IMG/VR virus record: IMGVR_UViG_2529292985_000032
Length of the DNA stretch: 41,694 bases
Strand: one strand, 5' to 3'
From: a virus
Lineage: Duplodnaviria; Heunggongvirae; Uroviricota; Caudoviricetes
Part shown: piece by piece, positions 9,128 through 35,199 of the stretch
How the letters are laid out: each line of letters opens with the position of its first letter
How positions within the stretch are numbered: position 1 is the stretch's first letter
The notes under the pieces: model-generated
Database searches by the model: none
Seen by the model: only the letters and a program-made list of their open reading frames with translations
What the model was told of the DNA's origin: nothing
Position numbers and translations under genes: made by a program

Positions 9128-9150
9128 ATTTAAAGGCCGCGAAAGCGGCC
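9126..9150. terminator. Hairpin GGCCGC-GAAA-GCGGCC between convergent genes
   Basis: Perfect 6-bp stem with GAAA tetraloop; T/A-rich run only on the minus-strand side (TTTAAATTT). Confidence 0.4.
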
Positions 9151-9165
9151 TGTGGCATGTCACGC

Positions 9166-9312
9166 TCACGTTATGACAAACCTATGTACCCTGGCTACAC
9201 CAGATAATATCAAAACAACTGCAACAGCAAATTCACCATCACCAATGATACATTTACGGTTCATAACGCCAAGTGCAACAAGCGCAAACAAAACAAGAAT
9301 AAAAGCAATCAT
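9166..9312 (-). CDS. Small hydrophobic protein (48 aa, two hydrophobic segments), not in ORF track
   Basis: ATG 9312 preceded by AAGGGTGAG; translation MIAFILVLFALVALGVMNRKCIIGDGEFAVAVVLILSGVARVHRFVIT; stop at 9166-9168. Confidence 0.4.
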   Translation of the reverse strand: MIAFILVLFALVALGVMNRKCIIGDGEFAVAVVLILSGVARVHRFVIT

Positions 9313-9321
9313 TTCTCACCC

Positions 9322-11106
9322 TTATTGCGGAGTGACATCCTGCGGTCGCCACCAGTATGTCTGGTTAAACTCTTTCTTCGAACGTTGCTCCATTTTACGC
9401 AAATAGCCTGGTGAAAAATACTCCTGCATCTGGTTAAAGATCATATGATCGAGAGCCGCCTTCAAGTACCAGAGATTCGCACCTGGCATCAGCCCCTTCC
9501 CAAGCTTAACCAGATCACCACCAGTCTGCTCATTCTTCCCTTCCACAGCATTTAACGGTATGCCCTGAGCAATCTTCACTACGTCATCAACCAGACCAGC
9601 TACCGGGCCAAACATCGACGCCAGCGCGCCGCTTCCGTACCTCGTGTGATCTGACAATAAAAAGTCACCGTAAAGGCCAAGACCACCACCTTTCAGCAGA
9701 GCACCAAGCCAAAATTTAGCAGCATCTTCTCCTGTCATCTCTCGAGGATTACGACCAGACGCAAGGTCGTTAAGTTGCTGCGACAAAGCGCCAAGAATGG
9801 TCGTACTGGCAATAAACGTCGCAATATATGCCGCACGCCCACCAGCAGACGGCATACCCATAGCGCGTGACCAGTGACGCATAACCACCGAGATAGGGAA
9901 CGATTTAAACAGGAAAACACTTCTCGTTAATTCACCTTTCCATGTTCCACGCTGAATACCAGAACCGGTTATCAGTTGCTCACGTGCTCCCGGTGTAATA
10001 ACAGCCATATCAACTTCTTCAGTTACGGCACCGAGCAGTTTACGCATTGCCTCAAATTTCACCCGTTCAGGCTCACCAAGATGTTTAACTGCTAAATCAG
10101 GGATACGCATAATGCTTTCCGGTGTCAGCATCGTATTATTACCGTTCCCCCAGTCCTCCTGTTGCGCCAGCTTCCATACGCTCCAGTCTGTGTCAGTAAT
10201 CCCTTTGCTTTTCAGGATACGAAAATCAGAGTCATCGAGGCTACGAAGGTCTGGTGTCCGTGACACTACTTCTCCCAGGCTTCCCATCATAGTTACGCCA
10301 TAGGCGCGCTTGTGCGCATCTGACCATGCTGTAAGCCCACTGGCACGCATTACCGCCGTTGCCGCCCAACGAGACACAGACGGCCCCATATTATCCATCG
10401 CCCAGCGGTTAACGCTGCCAAGTAGAGATTCCATCGCCAGACCAGCTCGGCGCGCCCGCGCAAGCTCAGTACGGTTCGTTGGGTCCATAGCTTCAAGCTG
10501 GTTGCGGAATAACTGGTTCATTGGAAGGTTGGTAACCTTCGCAGACAGATACATGGTTCCAAGATCAGAGAACGATGACAGCAACGCGGATCCGAGTCTG
10601 CTGGCAACCAGCCAGTTGCGGATATTGTCAGACCATCGCGCGATGTGCGGATTCGCTACAGGCTGTGTCTTTCCGGAAATAAAGTTGTACAGATTCTCTG
10701 TGTTGTTCGCCAGCCGCTCGACTTTACCGGTTTTACTCGGGTTAGCTGTTGCCGTTTCTGCCTTAACCTGATCAAGAAGGGAGCGGAAAACATGATCGGG
10801 GTTTGGACCATATGTTTCCACCAGTGCAATATCTTTACTGATACCTTCCAGGTGACCGACCATGATTTCCCATAGAGAGCGATCGCCATAAAGTTGCTGA
10901 TATTGCAGATAGGAATCTGCATCTTTGAAATGTATCTGTCGTGATGCATTACCACGGTTAGCACGTGCGCCGGAAATTCGCATTCCGGTATCAGTAAGCT
11001 TATTCAGCCCACCAGTAGCGATCGTGTTATAAGCCTCTCCAAGAAATGCAGACAACTCGGCATCGTTCATCAGTTGTCCATCGGCTCGGATATAATATTT
11101 GCGATC
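9322..11106 (-). pseudogene. C-terminal fragment of a large internal virion protein gene split by IS2
   Basis: Track ORF 9322..11133; its first 9 codons (MSGNIGANP) lie inside the IS2 terminus; native reading frame continues from the N-fragment across the target duplication. Confidence 0.7.
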
Positions 11107-11117
11107 TGGATTTGCCC

Positions 11118-12023
11118 CTATATTTCCAGACATCTGTTATCACTTAACCCATTACAAGCCCGCTGCCGCAGATATTCCCGTGGCGAGCGATAACCCAGCG
11201 CACTATGCGGATGCCATTCGTTATAATGCTCGAACGCCTCTGCAAGGTTCTTTGCTGCCGTTAACCCGTCTGGTTTGGGCATGATACTGATGTAGTCACG
11301 CTTTATCGTTTTCACGAAGCTCTCTGCTATTCCGTTACTCTCCGGACTCCGCACCGCCGTGTTCTTCGGTTCAAGTCCCAACATCCGGGCGAACTGGCGT
11401 GTTTCATTAGCCCGGTAGCATGAACCATTATCCGTCAGCCACTCCACTGGAGACGACGGAAGATCGTTGCCGAAGCGGCGTTCCACCGCTCCCAGCATGA
11501 CGTCCTGTACTGTTTCACTGTTGAAGCCGCCGGTAGTCACCGCCCAGTGCAGTGCCTCACGATCACAGCAGTCCAGCGCGAACGTGACACGCAGTCTCTC
11601 TCCGTTATCACAGCAGAACTCGAACCCGTCAGAGCACCATCGCTGATTGCTTTCTTTCACGGCCACTCTGCCTGTATGTGCCCGTTTCGATGGTGGTACA
11701 GCAGGTTTTCGCTCAAGCAACAGCGCATTCTGGCGCATGATCCGGTAAACACGTTTGGCATTGATCGCAGGCATACCATCAAGTTCTGCCTGTCTGCGAA
11801 GCAGCGCCCATACCCGACGATAACCATACGTGGGCAGCTCTCCGATAACATGGTGTATACGGAGAAGCACATCCGTATCATCAGTGTGACGACTGCGGCG
11901 GCCATCCATCCAGTCATCGGTTCGTCTGAGAATGACGTGCAACTGCGCACGCGACACCCGGAGACAACGGCTGACTAAGCTTACTCCCCATCCCCGGGCA
12001 ATAAGGGCGCGTGCGCTATCCAC
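11118..12023 (-). CDS. insD: IS2 transposase OrfB (InsD), DDE catalytic domain; made as OrfAB fusion by -1 frameshift
   Basis: 301-aa ORF overlapping insC in the -1 frame; integrase-core-like sequence. Confidence 0.85.
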
Positions 12024-24453: not shown

Positions 24454-24746
24454 TCCTGTTCACTGGCCTCTTTGGCCATCTTCAAATACTGTTCAGGGCA
24501 ATGCGCCATAACGCGCTGAAACAGTTCCAGCGCCAGATTGCGTTGCCCCTCATTAAATGCCATTGCCATAGCGTCCATCGGTGAGATAGCGGAAAACACA
24601 CGGCCTTTCTCCAGCACCGACCATACAACGCGACGCCCCTGTTCACTGCTCATGACAAAGCGAATGTCATCAATTTCACGCTGCGCCATGTCACGTTGCT
24701 TACGGGCGTTTTCTTCTTTCAGTTGATCGTCTTCGTAATCTGTCAT
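24450..24746 (-). CDS. Hypothetical small acidic head-module protein
   Basis: 98 aa, translationally coupled between portal and scaffold genes. Confidence 0.5.
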   Translation of the reverse strand: MTDYEDDQLKEENARKQRDMAQREIDDIRFVMSSEQGRRVVWSVLEKGRVFSAISPMDAMAMAFNEGQRNLALELFQRVMAHCPEQYLKMAKEASEQE

Positions 24747-26643: not shown

Positions 26644-26711
26644 ATCAATGACTCCGTACGCAATTAAATTATTACCAATTTAACCACATATGATTTATTT
26701 ATCGTAGTCGG

Positions 26712-26748
26712 TTGACATTTAACGCACGAATTATTACCTTTCAGGTAA
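26712..26748 (+). promoter_or_regulatory. Promoter-like TTGACA followed by operator palindrome TTACC-TTTCA-GGTAA (26734-26748)
   Basis: Consensus -35 hexamer at 26712-26717; palindrome overlaps the expected -10 region; upstream of noncoding leader and tRNA. Confidence 0.45.
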
Positions 26749-27070
26749 CCAAAAAGTTCATTCCGGTTACTAACCTGACTGGCTTGTCGTTAAATTGAAC
26801 AGGTGGAGTGAGCTTTTATTTTGAGCAGTACGGCGTATGGCACATGCGCCGATAGCGGCCTGGATACGTTTAAGGGGCACCCTCCCTTGCTCGGGCAAAC
26901 GAACCAGGTAGCCGGAATGTGCAAGTCGAGCGGTTTTATTCCGCGCACGGGGATTCACCATCCCGGCGATTCGGTGTGACGCCTCGGAAGAGACGAGGGT
27001 ACAACGATGAGAGCATTTATGGAGCCGCGACAAAGTGTGGTGCCTTAACAGGCTAAGTGCTCTCAGCGTT

Positions 27071-27147
27071 GTGGCATTAGCTCAGTCGGACAGAGCAACC
27101 GCCTTCTAAGCGGTTGGTCGCAGGTTCGAATCCTGCATGCCACGCCA
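27071..27147 (+). tRNA. tRNA-Arg, anticodon UCU (27105-27107), decodes AGA
   Basis: 77 nt cloverleaf: acceptor GTGGCAT/ATGCCAC, D-arm GCTC/GAGC, anticodon stem ACCGC/GCGGT with loop CTTCTAA, T-arm GCAGG-TTCGAAT-CCTGC, discriminator G and encoded CCA. Confidence 0.9.
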
Positions 27148-27190
27148 GAATCACGCCTAAGGACCGTGATGCCAGAAGTTCCAGTGCTTG

Positions 27191-27233
27191 GCGGTGATGG
27201 TTTCCCTTGAAGGACTATCACCGCACTTTTTAC
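27191..27233 (+). terminator. Terminator-like hairpin downstream of the tRNA
   Basis: GCGGTGAT ... ATCACCGC 8-bp stem with structured loop, followed by ACTTTTTAC. Confidence 0.45.
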
Positions 27234-27309
27234 AGCAGGACGCCATTGCGATGACTTCATGCTGTAAACCCGTACATCCACGGAAGGAAGAACTCATTGC
27301 TTCCAGTTC

Positions 27310-27333
27310 GCCCGGTTCGCCGGGCATTTTTTT
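27310..27333 (+). terminator. Rho-independent terminator just upstream of the 27345 gene
   Basis: GCCCGG-TTCG-CCGGGC then ATTTTTTT; the gene's Shine-Dalgarno follows immediately. Confidence 0.65.
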
Positions 27334-27344
27334 AAGGTGAGATT

Positions 27345-27701
27345 ATGAACGACCAGCAAATCGAAAAAGAAATCGTTGAGAAAGGCAAAACGGCACCGCG
27401 AGTTACGCCTCAATATATCGAAAGCATCATTCTTGAAGAGCATTTCTTTACTGCTTATGACGGCATTCGTGCCGCCAATATGGGCGTTGGCGATTCATGG
27501 ACAGCGCATAACTCTACAGACCTCCTGACTTTCTGCGTACTGGTGCTGAAGAATGGCTTCACCGTCACCGGAGAGAGTGCCTGTGCAAGCCAGGAAAACT
27601 TTGATGCAGAAATTGGTCGGAAGATTGCCCGGCAGAATGCTGTAAACAAAATCTGGATGCTCGAAGGTTACTTGCTGAAGCAGAAGCTAAGCGAGCAATA
27701 A
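27345..27701 (+). CDS. Conserved hypothetical phage accessory protein (118 aa)
   Basis: AAGGTGAG Shine-Dalgarno 4 nt before ATG; terminator downstream; plus-strand unit embedded between terminase and portal. Confidence 0.7.
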   Translation: MNDQQIEKEIVEKGKTAPRVTPQYIESIILEEHFFTAYDGIRAANMGVGDSWTAHNSTDLLTFCVLVLKNGFTVTGESACASQENFDAEIGRKIARQNAVNKIWMLEGYLLKQKLSEQ

Positions 27702-27704
27702 CAC

Positions 27705-27718
27705 CGTGACATGTCACA
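27705..27718. repeat. 14-bp element CGTGACATGTCACA (palindromic core), copy 2
   Basis: Identical 14-mer also at 29970-29983; this copy lies 3 nt after the 27345 gene stop and just downstream of terminase large stop. Confidence 0.8.
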
Positions 27719-27721
27719 AAC

Positions 27722-27750
27722 AGCCAGCCGATGAGCTGGCTTTGTTTTAT
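27722..27750 (+). terminator. Rho-independent terminator
   Basis: AGCCAGC-CGATGA-GCTGGCT followed by TTGTTTTAT. Confidence 0.6.
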
Positions 27751-27791
27751 CCTCGCCAGAGGATATCAGCAGCATTATCCCCTCCAACGGA

Positions 27792-29234
27792 TTAAGCATA
27801 GGGATCGTAATCTGTGATGGCCTTGCCTTGCTGGTTCTGCTGCCCGGGAATTCGCAGACGCTTCGACACAGGGAACGCAAACGTCAGCAGTAGCGCATCG
27901 CCTTTACCCGGCGAACGCCCAAGCCGCTCCTTGATATCTTCCTTCGGTTCGATAACGATTTTACCGTCCACTCGAACTTTGTACTCAGCCGCCGACAGGT
28001 CGTCCGCTGTTTCCTGGTCATCAAGCATGCCACCCAGCCTCAGCCATGTCTTGCATGAGATGAACATCTCCCCACGCTTGTTGAGCATCTGCGGGTCAGT
28101 AGACGCGCCACCGAACGGAACAAGTTGCCATGTACGACCCCAGCCGTCACCGATTGACTTCAGACCAGTTCCGTAACCGAAGTCGATGAACACTGCGTCA
28201 GCCTGGTACTGGTCTTCAAAGTCAGCGATACGCTTCGCCATAATCAGATCGTCAGTGGTCTTGTTGCCAGTCCACAGCACCTTACTGTGCAGCCCCTGCC
28301 GCAGGTATATCACAGCGTCATCAACGCCGGAGTATGCCGGGTCAACGCCGATTATCACCGGAGCATGTGCAACCTGCGCAGCGGTTACCACCCGTTTCAT
28401 TGCCTCGTCAGTAAGGCCAGTAGGGATAAACTGCAATTCAGATGCATCCGGGAATATGCCGCGCACACGGATTTTAACGAAGTCGCTGTCTTCCCCGTAG
28501 TCATCAACCCATTTCTGCAACTGCTGTTTGTTAGTGCCTTCCACCGTCCGGCTGTCAATCTGCGCACACTTCCAGCGGTGTTTGTACTTGCGGAAACATT
28601 CACGGAAACGCCCGGTGTTACGCGTCGGGTTTCCGAACGCCACCCAGATAATCTCAGTGTCTTCGTCCGTTAGCGCACCCTCGGCAACTTCCCACACCAG
28701 ATCCGCAATGTTCGACGCTTCATCGAATACCACGATGATGCGTTTGCGCTCGTTGTGTAGTCCGGCGAATGCCTCAGTGTTGTGCTCAGACCAGGGGATT
28801 GCGTCAGCTCGCCACCGCTTGTCGTGCCCAGGGTCATTGCTGTACATCGCGGTAGCGGTACAGGTAAACCAGTCTTTCGTGATAGCAAGGTTCGACCACT
28901 TGATAATTTCCGGCCAAGTCTTCGTTCGTAGCTGGTTGTCGGTGTTGGCGGTCACCACGACCTTACAATCCTCGCAAGTGGACATGCCCCAGTTGATCAG
29001 CATTGAGATGAATGCGGATTTACCAATACCGTGACCCGAAGCACGTGCCAGCATAAGCGGCTGATAGCGCGTCTCTGGATTCTGCAGGTGATCACGTATC
29101 TCTCGGAACGCATCAGCCTGCCACTGACGTGGACCGGTGGCATGTGCTAATTCAGTCCCCTCTTCCCCCCACGGGAACGCATAGAGGGCATAGCCAAGCG
29201 GATCGTGAGTGAACCCTGCAATATCCTCGATCAA
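27792..29234 (-). CDS. Terminase large subunit
   Basis: 480 aa; ATPase-like N-part and nuclease-like C-part; follows terminase small gene. Confidence 0.9.
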   Translation of the reverse strand: MIEDIAGFTHDPLGYALYAFPWGEEGTELAHATGPRQWQADAFREIRDHLQNPETRYQPLMLARASGHGIGKSAFISMLINWGMSTCEDCKVVVTANTDNQLRTKTWPEIIKWSNLAITKDWFTCTATAMYSNDPGHDKRWRADAIPWSEHNTEAFAGLHNERKRIIVVFDEASNIADLVWEVAEGALTDEDTEIIWVAFGNPTRNTGRFRECFRKYKHRWKCAQIDSRTVEGTNKQQLQKWVDDYGEDSDFVKIRVRGIFPDASELQFIPTGLTDEAMKRVVTAAQVAHAPVIIGVDPAYSGVDDAVIYLRQGLHSKVLWTGNKTTDDLIMAKRIADFEDQYQADAVFIDFGYGTGLKSIGDGWGRTWQLVPFGGASTDPQMLNKRGEMFISCKTWLRLGGMLDDQETADDLSAAEYKVRVDGKIVIEPKEDIKERLGRSPGKGDALLLTFAFPVSKRLRIPGQQNQQGKAITDYDPYA

Positions 29235-29263
29235 CTGCTCTTCAGGAGATAACGCTGTATCTG

Positions 29264-29938
29264 TCAGTGATTACCATCCTGACGTTCTTTGAGTCGCTTC
29301 CTGGCTGCTGCTATGCGATCAGCAATTGTCACATTCACATTAACATCCAGACGTTCTTTGAACGCGTTGACATCAACATGCTTACCAATCAGCTCAAGGT
29401 TCTTCACCTTGTCAGGCCATTTAATTTTTTTGAGGATTGTCTCTATCGAATCCTCGTTCATGTTCATGATGGTCGATGACAGATCAAAGCCACTAAGCGT
29501 AGTGCGCCAAATTTTCGGCCACTCACAGATTGGTTTAAGGCTCCCATCGTCGTTGAGGATGTCGATCACGTCCATCTGGTCGATCTCCACCAGGCGCATG
29601 AGAACGTAATCAGCACTGATGCGCATTCGTTTGTTGCGCTCCTCCATCAACTCGGCAATCCGTTTTTGAATGCGTTCATCGCGCATCATGACACTGGCTT
29701 TAACTGCCGCTGTATTTGGGGAGAATCCTGCGTTAATCGCTGCCTGAGTCTGGTTTTCAGGCGTTTTGATGTATGACTGGCAATAAGCCTCCTGCATTGC
29801 TGTTAGTGGCTTAAATTGCGTTGATTTGCGTTTATAGGTTTTAGGTTCAGCAGGCATCATAACCACCGTGGTAATAGTTACCGTTGTGGTAATAGTATCA
29901 TGCAAAATAAAGCCGCCATAGTTGGCGGCAGTATTCAA
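29264..29938 (-). CDS. Terminase small subunit (start uncertain)
   Basis: Track ORF starts at TTG 29938; more likely start is an ATG near 29857 with GGTGG upstream; conserved helix-turn-helix-like core (LTAMQEAYCQSYIK ... INAGFSP). Confidence 0.7.
   Translation of the reverse strand: MNTAANYGGFILHDTITTTVTITTVVMMPAEPKTYKRKSTQFKPLTAMQEAYCQSYIKTPENQTQAAINAGFSPNTAAVKASVMMRDERIQKRIAELMEERNKRMRISADYVLMRLVEIDQMDVIDILNDDGSLKPICEWPKIWRTTLSGFDLSSTIMNMNEDSIETILKKIKWPDKVKNLELIGKHVDVNAFKERLDVNVNVTIADRIAAARKRLKERQDGNH
29878..29892. promoter_or_regulatory. Operator-like palindrome TTACC-GTTGT-GGTAA immediately upstream of terminase small start
   Basis: Perfect half-sites. Confidence 0.45.
29901..29929 (-). 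terminator. Hairpin terminator in the late leader upstream of terminase small gene
   Basis: Minus-strand reading GCCGCC-AACTAT-GGCGGC followed by TTTATTTTG. Confidence 0.5.
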
Positions 29939-29969
29939 AACCCATCAAATTCATCATGCATAATCTACT

Positions 29970-29983
29970 CGTGACATGTCACA
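29970..29983. repeat. 14-bp element CGTGACATGTCACA, copy 1
   Basis: Overlaps the stop codon of the 29979..30317 gene; identical to 27705-27718. Confidence 0.8.
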
Positions 29984-30317
29984 CTATTAATTTCGTTTCA
30001 TGCCAGCCTTTAGTCACCCAGCATTGCGAGTCACCATTACACGGGCATGAATTAACTGGAACTCTCTCGCCGCACTTACCGCAACGTTTTCTGCTGATCG
30101 ATTTTATACGCCCGCGCACGCGTGCATCATCCTGGCGGATCAGTAACGCTATATACTCACCAAATTCGTAAGGCGCACGCCCGGGGCGACGCGTGGCACA
30201 GTTACGCTCCAGCATTTCAATTTCCTGAGCATCAAGCACAATTTCCAGCTTACGCACACCAGATGCAGCTTGTCTGGCTCTCTGAGCGGCTTTGCGCTCT
30301 GCTGATGATTTAGCCAT
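29979..30317 (-). CDS. Basic protein with C-terminal Cys-rich zinc-ribbon-like region; candidate late-gene regulator (Q position)
   Basis: 112 aa; C-terminal CGKCG ... CPCNGDSQC; sits directly upstream of late leader and terminase; function is positional inference. Confidence 0.4.
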   Translation of the reverse strand: MAKSSAERKAAQRARQAASGVRKLEIVLDAQEIEMLERNCATRRPGRAPYEFGEYIALLIRQDDARVRGRIKSISRKRCGKCGERVPVNSCPCNGDSQCWVTKGWHETKLIV

Positions 30318-30678
30318 TCTGATTTTCCTGCATCATGAGAAATACAATCATGGCGGCGCGGAGTGGGTTGTTGTCTATGGTAATAAATTCACAAAATCTA
30401 TCCGCCTCCCACCAATATTCATTCTTCATTCCAGGATTATTTCTTTCGTATGCACATATGCTGATCTGATGTTTTGCGATTACAGGCCATGAGGCGCTCG
30501 GATCATTGCAGTAGTCAGGTAAAGGGTTTAATGGCTCAAAAGTTGTATCAGCATTTCCGTAATACCATTTGTTGGTGTTATTCCCTGATGTTTCCGGTTT
30601 ACATGCCCAAAGGCCTTTAAAAATTATGTCTCCTACCATTCTGTTAATTTCAAAATCACTTAACTGTGAATAGTCCAT
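30310..30678 (-). CDS. Hypothetical early protein
   Basis: Track ORF 30310..30732; likely start ATG 30676-30678 overlapping upstream stop (TAATG). Confidence 0.55.
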   Translation of the reverse strand: MDYSQLSDFEINRMVGDIIFKGLWACKPETSGNNTNKWYYGNADTTFEPLNPLPDYCNDPSASWPVIAKHQISICAYERNNPGMKNEYWWEADRFCEFITIDNNPLRAAMIVFLMMQENQNG

Positions 30679-34402: not shown

Positions 34403-35199
34403 GCTTCAGGGCTGTTCCAGTGCGGAACGTTGTTATCAGGTAATGTTGATTGCTTCTGTCTGCTAATCTGCAGCCGCCTTGCCAGCTTCTGCTCCCACTG
34501 TGCCTGATGGTATGCCTTACCCTCAGCCATCCAGTAAATTCTGAACTCTGCAAGTTCCTGTGCCGTTGGCAGACTGTCCAGGTAGATCCCCTGCAATGAG
34601 CTTTTCCGAAGAAAGTCATCTGATGGCTGCCATTGTTCATGCATGACAAATTTGCCTAATTGCCCTGGCCCACCAGGAGGAACAAAGTTATTCATCACGG
34701 CGTTGTTTGCGCCGGGGTCATGAGGCACAGAATTCCCGTTTTTTGTCCTGCTCTCCCTCTCTTGGTTAAATGACTGGTTATATGACTGGTTCTGGATCCC
34801 GTTTTTGGGATCATTCAACATCCCGTTTTTGGGATCATTCAACATCCCGTTTTTGGTTATATTACCGTTTTCGGGAACATTACCGTTTTCGGGTTCATTC
34901 CCCCCTTCCCGGTTGCCTTTAATGTTCCCGTTTTTGGTTATATTAAGAGAGAAAACCCGCACTCTTTTCGTCGCTCCCTTTCTCTCTCCGGTATCTGAAA
35001 TAAGCCCCATTTTCATGAGCGATATAAGCCCGGCCTGCACGGTTTTTTTATTCAGGCAAGTGTCTTTAACGAGGCGTTCTATGCTGGGGTAGCAGAGGTT
35101 ATATTCATCGGCTCTGTCAGCCATCGAGAGCAGTATGAGCTTTAATGATGAGCTACCTGGATCTGTCTCCCAGGCCCAATCTGTTGCATGTCTGCTCAT
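34384..35199 (-). CDS. Lambda O-like replication initiator with internal iteron-encoded repeat linker
   Basis: 271 aa; N-terminal winged-helix-like region, central NGN/KNG peptide repeats encoded by DNA iterons, followed by P-like gene. Confidence 0.7.
   Translation of the reverse strand: MSRHATDWAWETDPGSSSLKLILLSMADRADEYNLCYPSIERLVKDTCLNKKTVQAGLISLMKMGLISDTGERKGATKRVRVFSLNITKNGNIKGNREGGNEPENGNVPENGNITKNGMLNDPKNGMLNDPKNGIQNQSYNQSFNQERESRTKNGNSVPHDPGANNAVMNNFVPPGGPGQLGKFVMHEQWQPSDDFLRKSSLQGIYLDSLPTAQELAEFRIYWMAEGKAYHQAQWEQKLARRLQISRQKQSTLPDNNVPHWNSPEAWEDFL
34797..34945. repeat. Iteron array (probable replication origin) inside the O-like gene
   Basis: Two perfect 24-bp tandem units TCCCGTTTTTGGGATCATTCAACA (34797-34844), further TCCCGTTTTTGG copies at 34845 and 34926, two 18-bp TTACCGTTTTCGGG-type units at 34862-34897. 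Confidence 0.7.

Follow-up and report, generated by a model that had tools for sequence, protein, structure and literature searches.

Dispersed copies of a 12-bp palindrome in an epsilon15-like prophage are inherited together with a gp49-family gene, whose product is their candidate partner

The window analyzed here, a 41,694-nucleotide (nt) stretch of viral DNA (IMG/VR record IMGVR_UViG_2529292985_000032), is an epsilon15/phiV10-like (Uetakevirus) prophage that carries a short palindromic motif, GTGAC-AT-GTCAC, at three positions. The motif is a selected, dispersed cis-element. The motif and a gene of the gp49 family, which encodes a 112-amino-acid (aa) zinc-ribbon protein in the window, are inherited together across unrelated phages. 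Sequence comparison and a structural model point to this protein as the most probable partner of the motif, and we consider the odds to lie slightly in favor of such a pairing. A first-pass annotation of the window had offered three functions for the element: a binding site for the zinc-ribbon regulator, a recombination scar, or a part of packaging recognition. Among these, the comparative evidence favors a site for the regulator. A regulator-operator pair with an unusual placement and an uncharacterized protein family is the most likely description of the system.

The motif was first seen as an identical 14-mer, CGTGACATGTCACA, at either end of the terminase gene pair, and both copies are exact on the plus strand (27705-27718 and 29970-29983). 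The 14-mer has a perfect palindrome of 12 bp at its core and asymmetric end bases, C...A, which are dispensable. Relatives have T...G, C...G or T...A at these positions, and the ends are flipped in one IMG/VR locus (L114); therefore, the consensus is YGTGACATGTCACR. A third copy with a single mismatch lies far from the other two (Table 1). The first-pass annotation considered the 14-mer pair improbable by chance. This argument is weakened for the repeat as such, since the window contains six other direct repeats of 14-17 nt, all unrelated to the motif, but it stands for the palindromic core. The window has ten 12-bp palindromes, which is the chance level, and only motif copies 1 and 2 form an identical pair. 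Matches to the motif with at most two mismatches number 6 against 0.29 expected, and none of 100 shuffles reaches 6. One match with two mismatches, at 24682, falls within coding sequence and has no palindromic form in relatives, and we took it for a chance match.

The order of elements is the same at each site when read along the direction of the terminator T-run: stop codon, motif, terminator. The gap between motif and hairpin is 0-3 nt at sites 2 and 3 and 25-40 nt at site 1. The motif itself is not an intrinsic terminator, as it folds to just -2.7 kcal/mol and lacks a U-tract; the terminators are the neighboring hairpins. The three sites close three consecutive units, namely the early-right operon, of which the gp49-family gene is the last, the terminase genes terS-terL, and the virion block gp3-gp18. 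Each unit after a motif site opens with a TTACC-N5-GGTAA operator. The copy at 29970 does overlap the stop codon of the zinc-ribbon gene, as first described. The copy at 27705 had been placed just past terL, but 74 nt separate it from the terL stop and a bidirectional terminator stands between the two; the TAA of a convergent gene is 3 nt away. Likewise, the sites do mark module boundaries, but they are three in number and are not confined to the flanks of the terminase pair.

The first-pass annotation had proposed a search of related phage genomes, and this search supports the element. The core is unchanged at the same three positions in Salmonella, Klebsiella and Enterobacter relatives while the flanks diverge. 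In epsilon15, perfect copies number exactly three and occupy the homologous positions: one follows the terL terminator (2142), one lies over the gp18 TGA just before an annotated terminator (19517), and one lies over the gp49 TGA before another annotated terminator (39612). The terminase region of epsilon15 is only about 81% identical to that of the window, and the intergenic flanks differ. The same pattern, with occasional single mismatches, is present in 65FD, Tyrion, BUCT554, BUCT711 and Klebsiella phi13.3. Site 1 is exact in epsilon15, Klebsiella phi13.3, 65FD and BUCT711, and site 2 is exact in epsilon15, BUCT554 and Tyrion. A perfect copy occupies the site 3 position in epsilon15, Tyrion, 65FD, BUCT711 and many IMG/VR contigs. 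Klebsiella BUCT711 has four sites, two of them within virion open reading frames (ORFs), and no site 2. A broader sample consisted of 80 IMG/VR loci picked by similarity of the large terminase subunit (TerL) alone, with counts made over 79. Site 1 is exact in 73 of the 79 relatives. Site 2 is exact in 60, has one mismatch in eight, and is missing along with its terminator in 11. A 14-mer scan of genome contigs gave, among the matches listed, mostly chance occurrences in unrelated bacteria, and the informative ones were in Enterobacterales. In the more distant relatives L251 (Morganella), L287 (Proteus) and L037, a copy written as TAAGGTGTGACATGTCACG lies in the head-gene cluster, and its central ATG is the start codon of the next gene.

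Conserved genes also meet variable cargo at the sites. The convergent cargo genes that end with TAA or TAG, 3 nt and the motif at site 2 of the relatives are of at least seven unrelated kinds. Site 1 is followed by a terminator, operator and terS in some relatives, by an additional gene behind a LexA-box promoter in others, and in yet others by a gene that starts 9 nt on. At site 3, the sequence is variable on both sides. The motif is thus without a fixed promoter geometry. An extra gene between the motif and terS is found in several Klebsiella and Enterobacter relatives (L007, L010, L028, L039, L011, L120 and L126), where it is preceded by a strong sigma-70-like promoter, TTGACT-17-TATACT, that overlaps a LexA box.

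The association of the motif with the gp49-family gene extends well beyond the epsilon15-like phages. A scan of IMG/VR for the exact 14-mer found the TGA stop inside the motif in homologues of 46-65% identity, some of which precede entirely different downstream genes. Members in other phage types were found by a tblastn search of phage genomes with the 112-aa protein. In the Pectobacterium myovirus ZF40, gp22 is 67% identical to it, and a perfect TGTGACATGTCACA lies 1 nt past its stop codon in a nin-like region; the ZF40 genome has exactly three motif copies. N15 gp46 and phiKO2 gp45 are 35-37% identical, and their stop codons lie inside CGTGACTGGTCACG, a TG-centered site. N15 and phiKO2 each have exactly three GTGAC-N2-GTCAC sites, all of the TG/CA variant. 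These are found at conserved places: the stop of the family gene, inside repA, and 5' of the icd-ant operon (icd-antA-antB, which encodes an anti-repressor). The sites are at 28550, 33237 and 39269 in N15 (L335) and at 9510, 14390 and 20267 in phiKO2 (L336), and none of the three is annotated in the record of either phage. Vibrio phage K233, with a family member of 31% identity, has three sites with AC or GC centers, one of them 20 nt before the terS start.

Exactly three GTGAC-N2-GTCAC sites are present in each of epsilon15, 65FD, ZF40, N15, phiKO2 and Vibrio K233, as compared with 0.02-0.06 per genome in dinucleotide shuffles. The central dinucleotide follows the lineage. Epsilon15-like phages and ZF40 have AT (with CT in one of the three copies of 65FD), N15 and phiKO2 have TG, and the Vibrio phage has AC or GC. 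The center differs even between lineages on the same host, E. coli, being AT in the window prophage and TG in N15. No sites with spacers of 1, 3 or 4 nt occur in the genomes compared, save one in the Vibrio phage. When 5-N2-5 palindromes with three or more copies were sought blindly, GTGAC alone emerged in epsilon15, ZF40 and 65FD. In N15, GTGAC emerged together with dispersed inverted repeats that carry the label of putative partitioning sites in the record of the related phiKO2, and the recovery of these repeats validates the method. An independent IMG/VR scan with the TG-type 14-mer found 120 loci. A family member is encoded in 28 of them, with the motif at the 3' end of its gene in at least 25 of the 28. 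These include 40%-identity homologues of a further lineage.

The 112-aa protein has no Pfam family and no sequence match in the PDB; its PHROGs label is "transcriptional regulator". The family is a small one, of 182 representatives when clustered at 50%. An early structure prediction from a shallow alignment (model confidence, pLDDT, 63) and its Foldseek search were uninformative, and a deeper alignment was used instead. The AlphaFold (AF2) model from this diverse alignment has a pLDDT of 91.5. From the N terminus on, it has a basic helix, an extended segment, a pair of helices, a Cys4 knuckle and a last, C-terminal helix. This layout can be read as an N-terminal ribbon-helix-helix (RHH)-like fold followed by a C-terminal Cys4 zinc module. 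The best structural matches of the model are RHH proteins that bind double-stranded DNA, a resemblance at the level of the fold. The Foldseek search of this model against the PDB gave no significant match (best E about 1, TTHA0139), and the family has no significant sequence match to any RHH Pfam family. From the model, the gp49-family protein looks like a DNA binder. The putative beta-strand reads RKLELVL in the AT lineage as opposed to TRRDWVL in the TG lineage. The C-terminal half (residues 47-105) aligns weakly with TraR (hhalign 77%, E 2e-5), and matches of hidden Markov models to TraR and YbiI are weak (E about 0.1). The cysteine spacing is unlike the CxxC-N17-CxxC of DksA and TraR, and there is no match to Pfam zf-dskA_traR.

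According to the explanation we favor, a dimer of the gp49-family protein would bind the motif through its N-terminal RHH-like domain, with one GTGAC half-site per subunit and the beta-ribbon of the dimer over the variable center. In the window prophage, the motif-bound protein would act on RNA polymerase that crosses transcription-unit boundaries. The bound protein could work in either direction, by reinforcing or insulating the adjacent terminators or by letting late transcription read through. The complex would in this way control the flow of transcription from the early operon to terS-terL and then into and past the convergent cargo genes.

Several observations weigh against this explanation. 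A Yersinia P2-like phage has a family member without the motif at its stop, and its single copy is 3.4 kb off. The family member of an Aeromonas phage has no motif, and three IMG/VR homologues (L033, L040 and L108) lack it at the stop. In unrelated phages (L413), the motif forms dense iteron-like arrays, and no family member was detected in their vicinity, so the motif is not exclusive to the gp49 family. Some sites lie inside ORFs in BUCT711, ZF40 and N15; therefore, a purely terminator-linked role is not general. There is no fixed distance between site and promoter, since site 1 can be followed by a terminator, an SOS-controlled promoter or a gene directly. The three sites also show no conserved promoter geometry of the kind expected of RHH operators, which lie over the promoters they regulate.

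The settings of two of these cases can be described further. In the Yersinia phage vB_YenM_42.18 (L339, 8073-11728), the family gene is beside a gene annotated as SMC-like (873 aa), and the single motif is just past the SMC-like gene in a P2 accessory-gene hotspot. The L413 array (10585-10703) comprises six GTGAC-N2-GTCAC copies within a 416-aa ORF (9951-11201), and similar arrays are present in other GC-rich viral contigs (L027, L046 and L113). The ORF resembles a replication protein and appears, by sequence inspection only, to have a GIY-YIG-like segment. The array looks like origin iterons within an initiator gene.

Among the known systems close to the proposed pair are the RHH repressor/operator pairs, such as P22 Arc and Mnt at the ant promoter, CopG, MetJ, and the antitoxins ParD, TacA and FitA. 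Like these, the proposed pair has a small protein with a predicted beta-alpha-alpha fold and a short palindromic site with half-sites of about 5 bp, few per genome and present where the protein is encoded. An association with anti-repressor loci is also shared (site 3 of the window and the N15/phiKO2 site 5' of icd-ant). In contrast to these pairs, the motif sites are outside defined promoters, at stop codons, at terminators or inside ORFs, and the gp49-family protein adds an N-terminal basic helix and a C-terminal Cys4 zinc module.

The arrangement at site 1 also recalls the lambda-type antiterminator Q and its Q-binding element, with a regulator gene last before the late region, a cis-site directly after the gene and then a terminator in the late path. 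However, the gp49-family protein has no Q-family domain by Pfam, there is no fixed promoter or pause geometry, and further copies are far from late promoters. N15, phiKO2 and ZF40 carry a separate gene annotated as Q-like besides the family member. A weak sigma-70-like match, GTGACA-18-CATGAT, begins in motif copy 1, but its spacer is not conserved in epsilon15 and other variants are without such a promoter.

The C-terminal half of the protein, with a helix, a C-x2-C...C zinc knuckle and a helix, aligns weakly with TraR, one of the DksA/TraR-type factors (F TraR, lambda Orf73) that bind in the secondary channel of RNA polymerase. The gp49-family gene lies in the nin-like accessory region where phage TraR-like genes occur. 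Unlike the gp49-family protein, TraR has neither a DNA-binding domain nor a DNA site, and the cysteine spacing differs. The family might be an RHH domain that tethers a TraR/DksA-like zinc module to 12-bp sites, where arriving RNA polymerase would be modified or arrested through its secondary channel. We think this improbable as a specific mechanism. If it were true, termination and read-through could be controlled site-specifically without a promoter-bound loading step, and the protein would be a new kind of transcription factor. Less likely than this is a phage-encoded organizer like MatP that marks phage DNA with matS-like sites one bp shorter. MatP organizes the Ter macrodomain of enterobacteria and vibrios by way of matS, which is 13 bp with a 3-nt RNY spacer, as opposed to the 2-nt spacer of the motif. 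MatP has a four-helix bundle and a coiled coil where the gp49-family protein has a zinc ribbon. A comparison by hhalign of the family profile with a MatP sequence gave a probability of 0.2%, and MatP was absent from the profile matches in the PDB; what the two share is confined to an RHH resemblance of the fold.

The dispersed inverted repeats of N15 and phiKO2, GTGCGACC-NN-GGTCGCAC, provide another parallel. These putative phiKO2 partitioning sites are also 5-N2-5 palindromes, with 4 copies round the genome, some of them in or beside genes. They have CGACC half-sites and coexist with the GTGAC sites as a distinct set in both genomes. If they are partition sites, their partner is a different one too, a ParB-type protein. 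The possibility that the phiKO2 partitioning sites are the N15-type motif was rejected, as the palindrome is different.

Among the rival explanations, control at the RNA level is a minor possibility. The transcribed motif could form a hairpin, with a GUGA/UCAC stem and a C-NN-G loop, that is bound by a protein, possibly through the zinc-ribbon module, and this could control translation of the next gene, events at the stop codon or the stability of mRNA 3' ends. All copies are transcribed, the variable positions are the loop positions, and many copies adjoin a stop codon or precede a Shine-Dalgarno sequence or start codon by 0-20 nt. Examples of the latter are N15 gene 47, the Vibrio terS, the variant in 19 of 80 loci with a gene 9 nt after site 1, and the central-ATG start in Morganella and Proteus. 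However, the hairpin is weak, its -2.7 kcal/mol being no different from shuffles, its stem sequence is invariant without covariation, and the RHH proteins that best match the gp49 model bind double-stranded DNA. Since the motif is palindromic, its orientation does not discriminate between RNA and DNA. A recombination linker, in which the motif and terminator form a short boundary that serves chiefly, or solely, to supply homology for cargo swaps, is also unlikely. The motif does lie exactly at mosaic breakpoints. The homology of related phages breaks at 27699-27722, the unrelated cargo genes at site 2 all end in the same way, mosaic sequence is found on one or both sides of sites 1 and 3, and epsilon15-like phages encode RecT/RecE-type recombinases. 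The lambdoid mosaic boundary sequences are similar in being short conserved stretches at homology breaks with variable cargo on one side. However, the motif is the conserved part of the junction, and it differs from the lambdoid sequences in being palindromic, in having three dispersed copies and a lineage-specific center, and in occurring at non-junction positions elsewhere. Copies lie inside ORFs or at non-mosaic places in N15, phiKO2, ZF40 and BUCT711. A stretch of 12-14 bp is very short for homologous exchange, and the motif is invariant although the adjacent hairpins vary between the three sites and between genera. All copies in a genome change their center together, in step with the gp49 lineage, and the copy number is left unexplained. 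A position at mosaic junctions is expected of any conserved intergenic island.

Somewhat less probable again is that the motif is a site for another protein, either a host factor such as MatP or a different phage protein, and that the linkage to gp49 is coincidental. The half-sites GTGAC/GTCAC are the same as in matS, the motif is used as iterons for other proteins elsewhere, and all hosts are Enterobacterales or Vibrio, lineages that possess MatP. The matS consensus is reportedly GTGACRNYGTCAC, attributed to Mercier et al. 2008. However, its spacer is 3 nt and not 2, and no site with a 3-nt spacer is present in the window, epsilon15, N15 or ZF40. The overlap of the motif with the stop codon of the gp49 family, which persists to 35% identity in four phage architectures, is hard to explain without a functional tie, and the centers differ between lineages that infect the same host. 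A packaging signal, with the terminase recognizing two pac- or cos-related copies that bracket terS-terL, is very improbable. Two copies do flank the terminase genes, as the first-pass annotation noted, but the third is about 18.5 kb from terS, and site 2 is absent from 11 of 79 relatives whose TerL is 98-100% identical, and from BUCT711. The motif goes with the gp49 gene and not, as would be expected of pac or cos, with the terminase type. It accompanies this gene amid the unrelated terminases and packaging modes of N15 (lambda-like cos, with an annotated 12-nt sticky end), the myovirus ZF40 and P2-like phages. A functionless chance repeat is barely credible. The six other 14-17-mer direct repeats in the window agree with it, but the invariance across genera at three positions and the excess of copies over expectation in six genomes refute it.

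Known sites of other kinds were also considered. A CRP/FNR site was rejected: such sites have TGTGA/TCACA half-sites with N6 spacing, and the motif has similar half-sites, but with N4 between GTGA and TCAC. The SlmA site consensus is GTGAGTACTCAC, which the motif matches at the outer 4+4 positions but not at the key positions 5 and 8. Position 1 of the phiV10 record maps inside the motif, but no physical genome end is located there; the record was opened arbitrarily just behind the stop codon of its last gene.

The 12-mer was not found in the literature searched, which did not include the epsilon15 genome paper. The literature on epsilon15, phiV10, Uetakevirus, gp49 and SPC32H had nothing on the motif or the protein, and the epsilon15 RefSeq record, for all its many annotated features, does not list the motif. 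The gp49 family has no Pfam model, and no characterized member was found. E. coli and Salmonella commonly carry epsilon15/phiV10-like prophages, in which the means of switching on and insulating the packaging and virion genes are poorly understood. The present analysis turns an anonymous repeat into a testable regulator-site pair, with a 12-bp motif, three prophage positions and a 112-aa protein. The natural specificity variants (AT, TG and AC centers) in N15, phiKO2, ZF40 and Vibrio phages permit swap experiments. The motif sites are also exchange points for cargo, including a tRNA, a gene of the Sf6 gene-66 family and a probable SOS-controlled anti-repressor; therefore, the element is relevant to regulation and mosaic evolution alike.

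Table 1. Motif copies and neighboring features of the window
Feature	Position	Strand	Remarks
Motif copy 1, CGTGACATGTCACA	29970-29983	.	Core GTGACATGTCAC at 29971-29982; over the TGA stop of the gp49-family gene; terminator 40 nt on in minus direction
Motif copy 2, CGTGACATGTCACA	27705-27718	.	3 nt after cargo-gene TAA; 3 nt before bidirectional terminator 27722-27741
Motif copy 3, one mismatch, CGTGACATGCCACA on minus strand, TGTGGCATGTCACG on plus strand	9151-9164		1 nt after TGA of 48-aa ORF 9166-9312 (minus); abuts hairpin 9135-9150
gp49-family gene, 112 aa	29979-30317	-	TGA stop 29979-29981; proposed trans factor for the motif
Intrinsic terminator	29912-29929	-	Divides early-right operon (gp49 last) from terS; equivalent stem-loop annotated in epsilon15
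Repressor-type operator(s), TTACC-N5-GGTAA	29870-29894	-	Between terminator and terS start; homologous site annotated "repressor" in NC_004775.2
Terminase small subunit gene terS	29264-29860	-	PF03592
Terminase large subunit gene terL	27792-29267	-	
Bidirectional terminator hairpin	27722-27741	.	T-run on plus-strand side; adjoins motif copy 2; ends terS-terL
Variable convergent cargo region	26650-27701	+	Operator 26732-26748, tRNA-Arg(TCT) 27071-27147, ORF 27345-27701
Cargo ORF, Sf6-gene-66/N4-gp49 family	27345-27701	+	PF13876
Terminator hairpin GGCCGCGAAAGCGGCC	9135-9150	-	T-run in minus direction; ends virion-gene block; terminator annotated at same epsilon15 place
Small convergent anti-repressor-like gene region	8777-9127	+	Gene 8870-9127, operator 8777-8793, LexA box 8831-8850; neighbors motif copy 3

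The region 27300-30400 of the window is 95-97% identical to the Uetakevirus phages phiV10, ZX5, PAS61 and TL-2011b and about 80% identical to epsilon15 and the Klebsiella and Enterobacter relatives. The late genes are on the minus strand, with gp3, the portal gene and other virion genes coming after the cargo region. The terL terminator hairpin is preserved through compensatory changes in epsilon15 and in the Klebsiella and Enterobacter relatives. The tRNA-Arg(TCT) gene (plus strand) sits in the variable cargo between the portal gene and terL. It is the sole Rfam match, both for the whole window at the gathering threshold and for 26650-27350 in E-value mode. The stretch before it (26820-27060, about 250 nt) contains no convincing ORF and no Rfam match.

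The TTACC-N5-GGTAA inverted repeats are found at 29870-29894, 26732-26748 and 8777-8793, and also at 8728, 26670, 30379, 34860, 35494, 35891 and 36653. The heptamer TATTACC has 13 copies in the window against 3.4 expected, and the same 17-mer, TATTACCTTTCAGGTAA, lies 5' of both plus-strand cargo regions. In the epsilon15 RefSeq record, homologues of these sites carry a repressor-binding annotation; therefore, the late units appear to be directly under the control of the prophage repressor. A perfect LexA box, TACTGTATATTCATACAGTT, lies just 5' of the 85-aa ORF beside motif copy 3. The product of this ORF has weak similarity to anti-repressors, and Tyrion and 65FD annotate an anti-repressor at the same position. 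It is probably an SOS-controlled anti-repressor, of a kind reportedly described for SPC32H. Iteron-like direct repeats at 34763-34940, made of a 24-bp unit, ATCCCGTTTTTGGGATCATTCAAC, in 2.5 copies and related CCGTTTT(T/C)GG repeats, are probably the replication origin. A perfect tandem repeat of the pentanucleotide GGGAG (5.8 copies, 6228-6256) lies just 3' of the tailspike gene.

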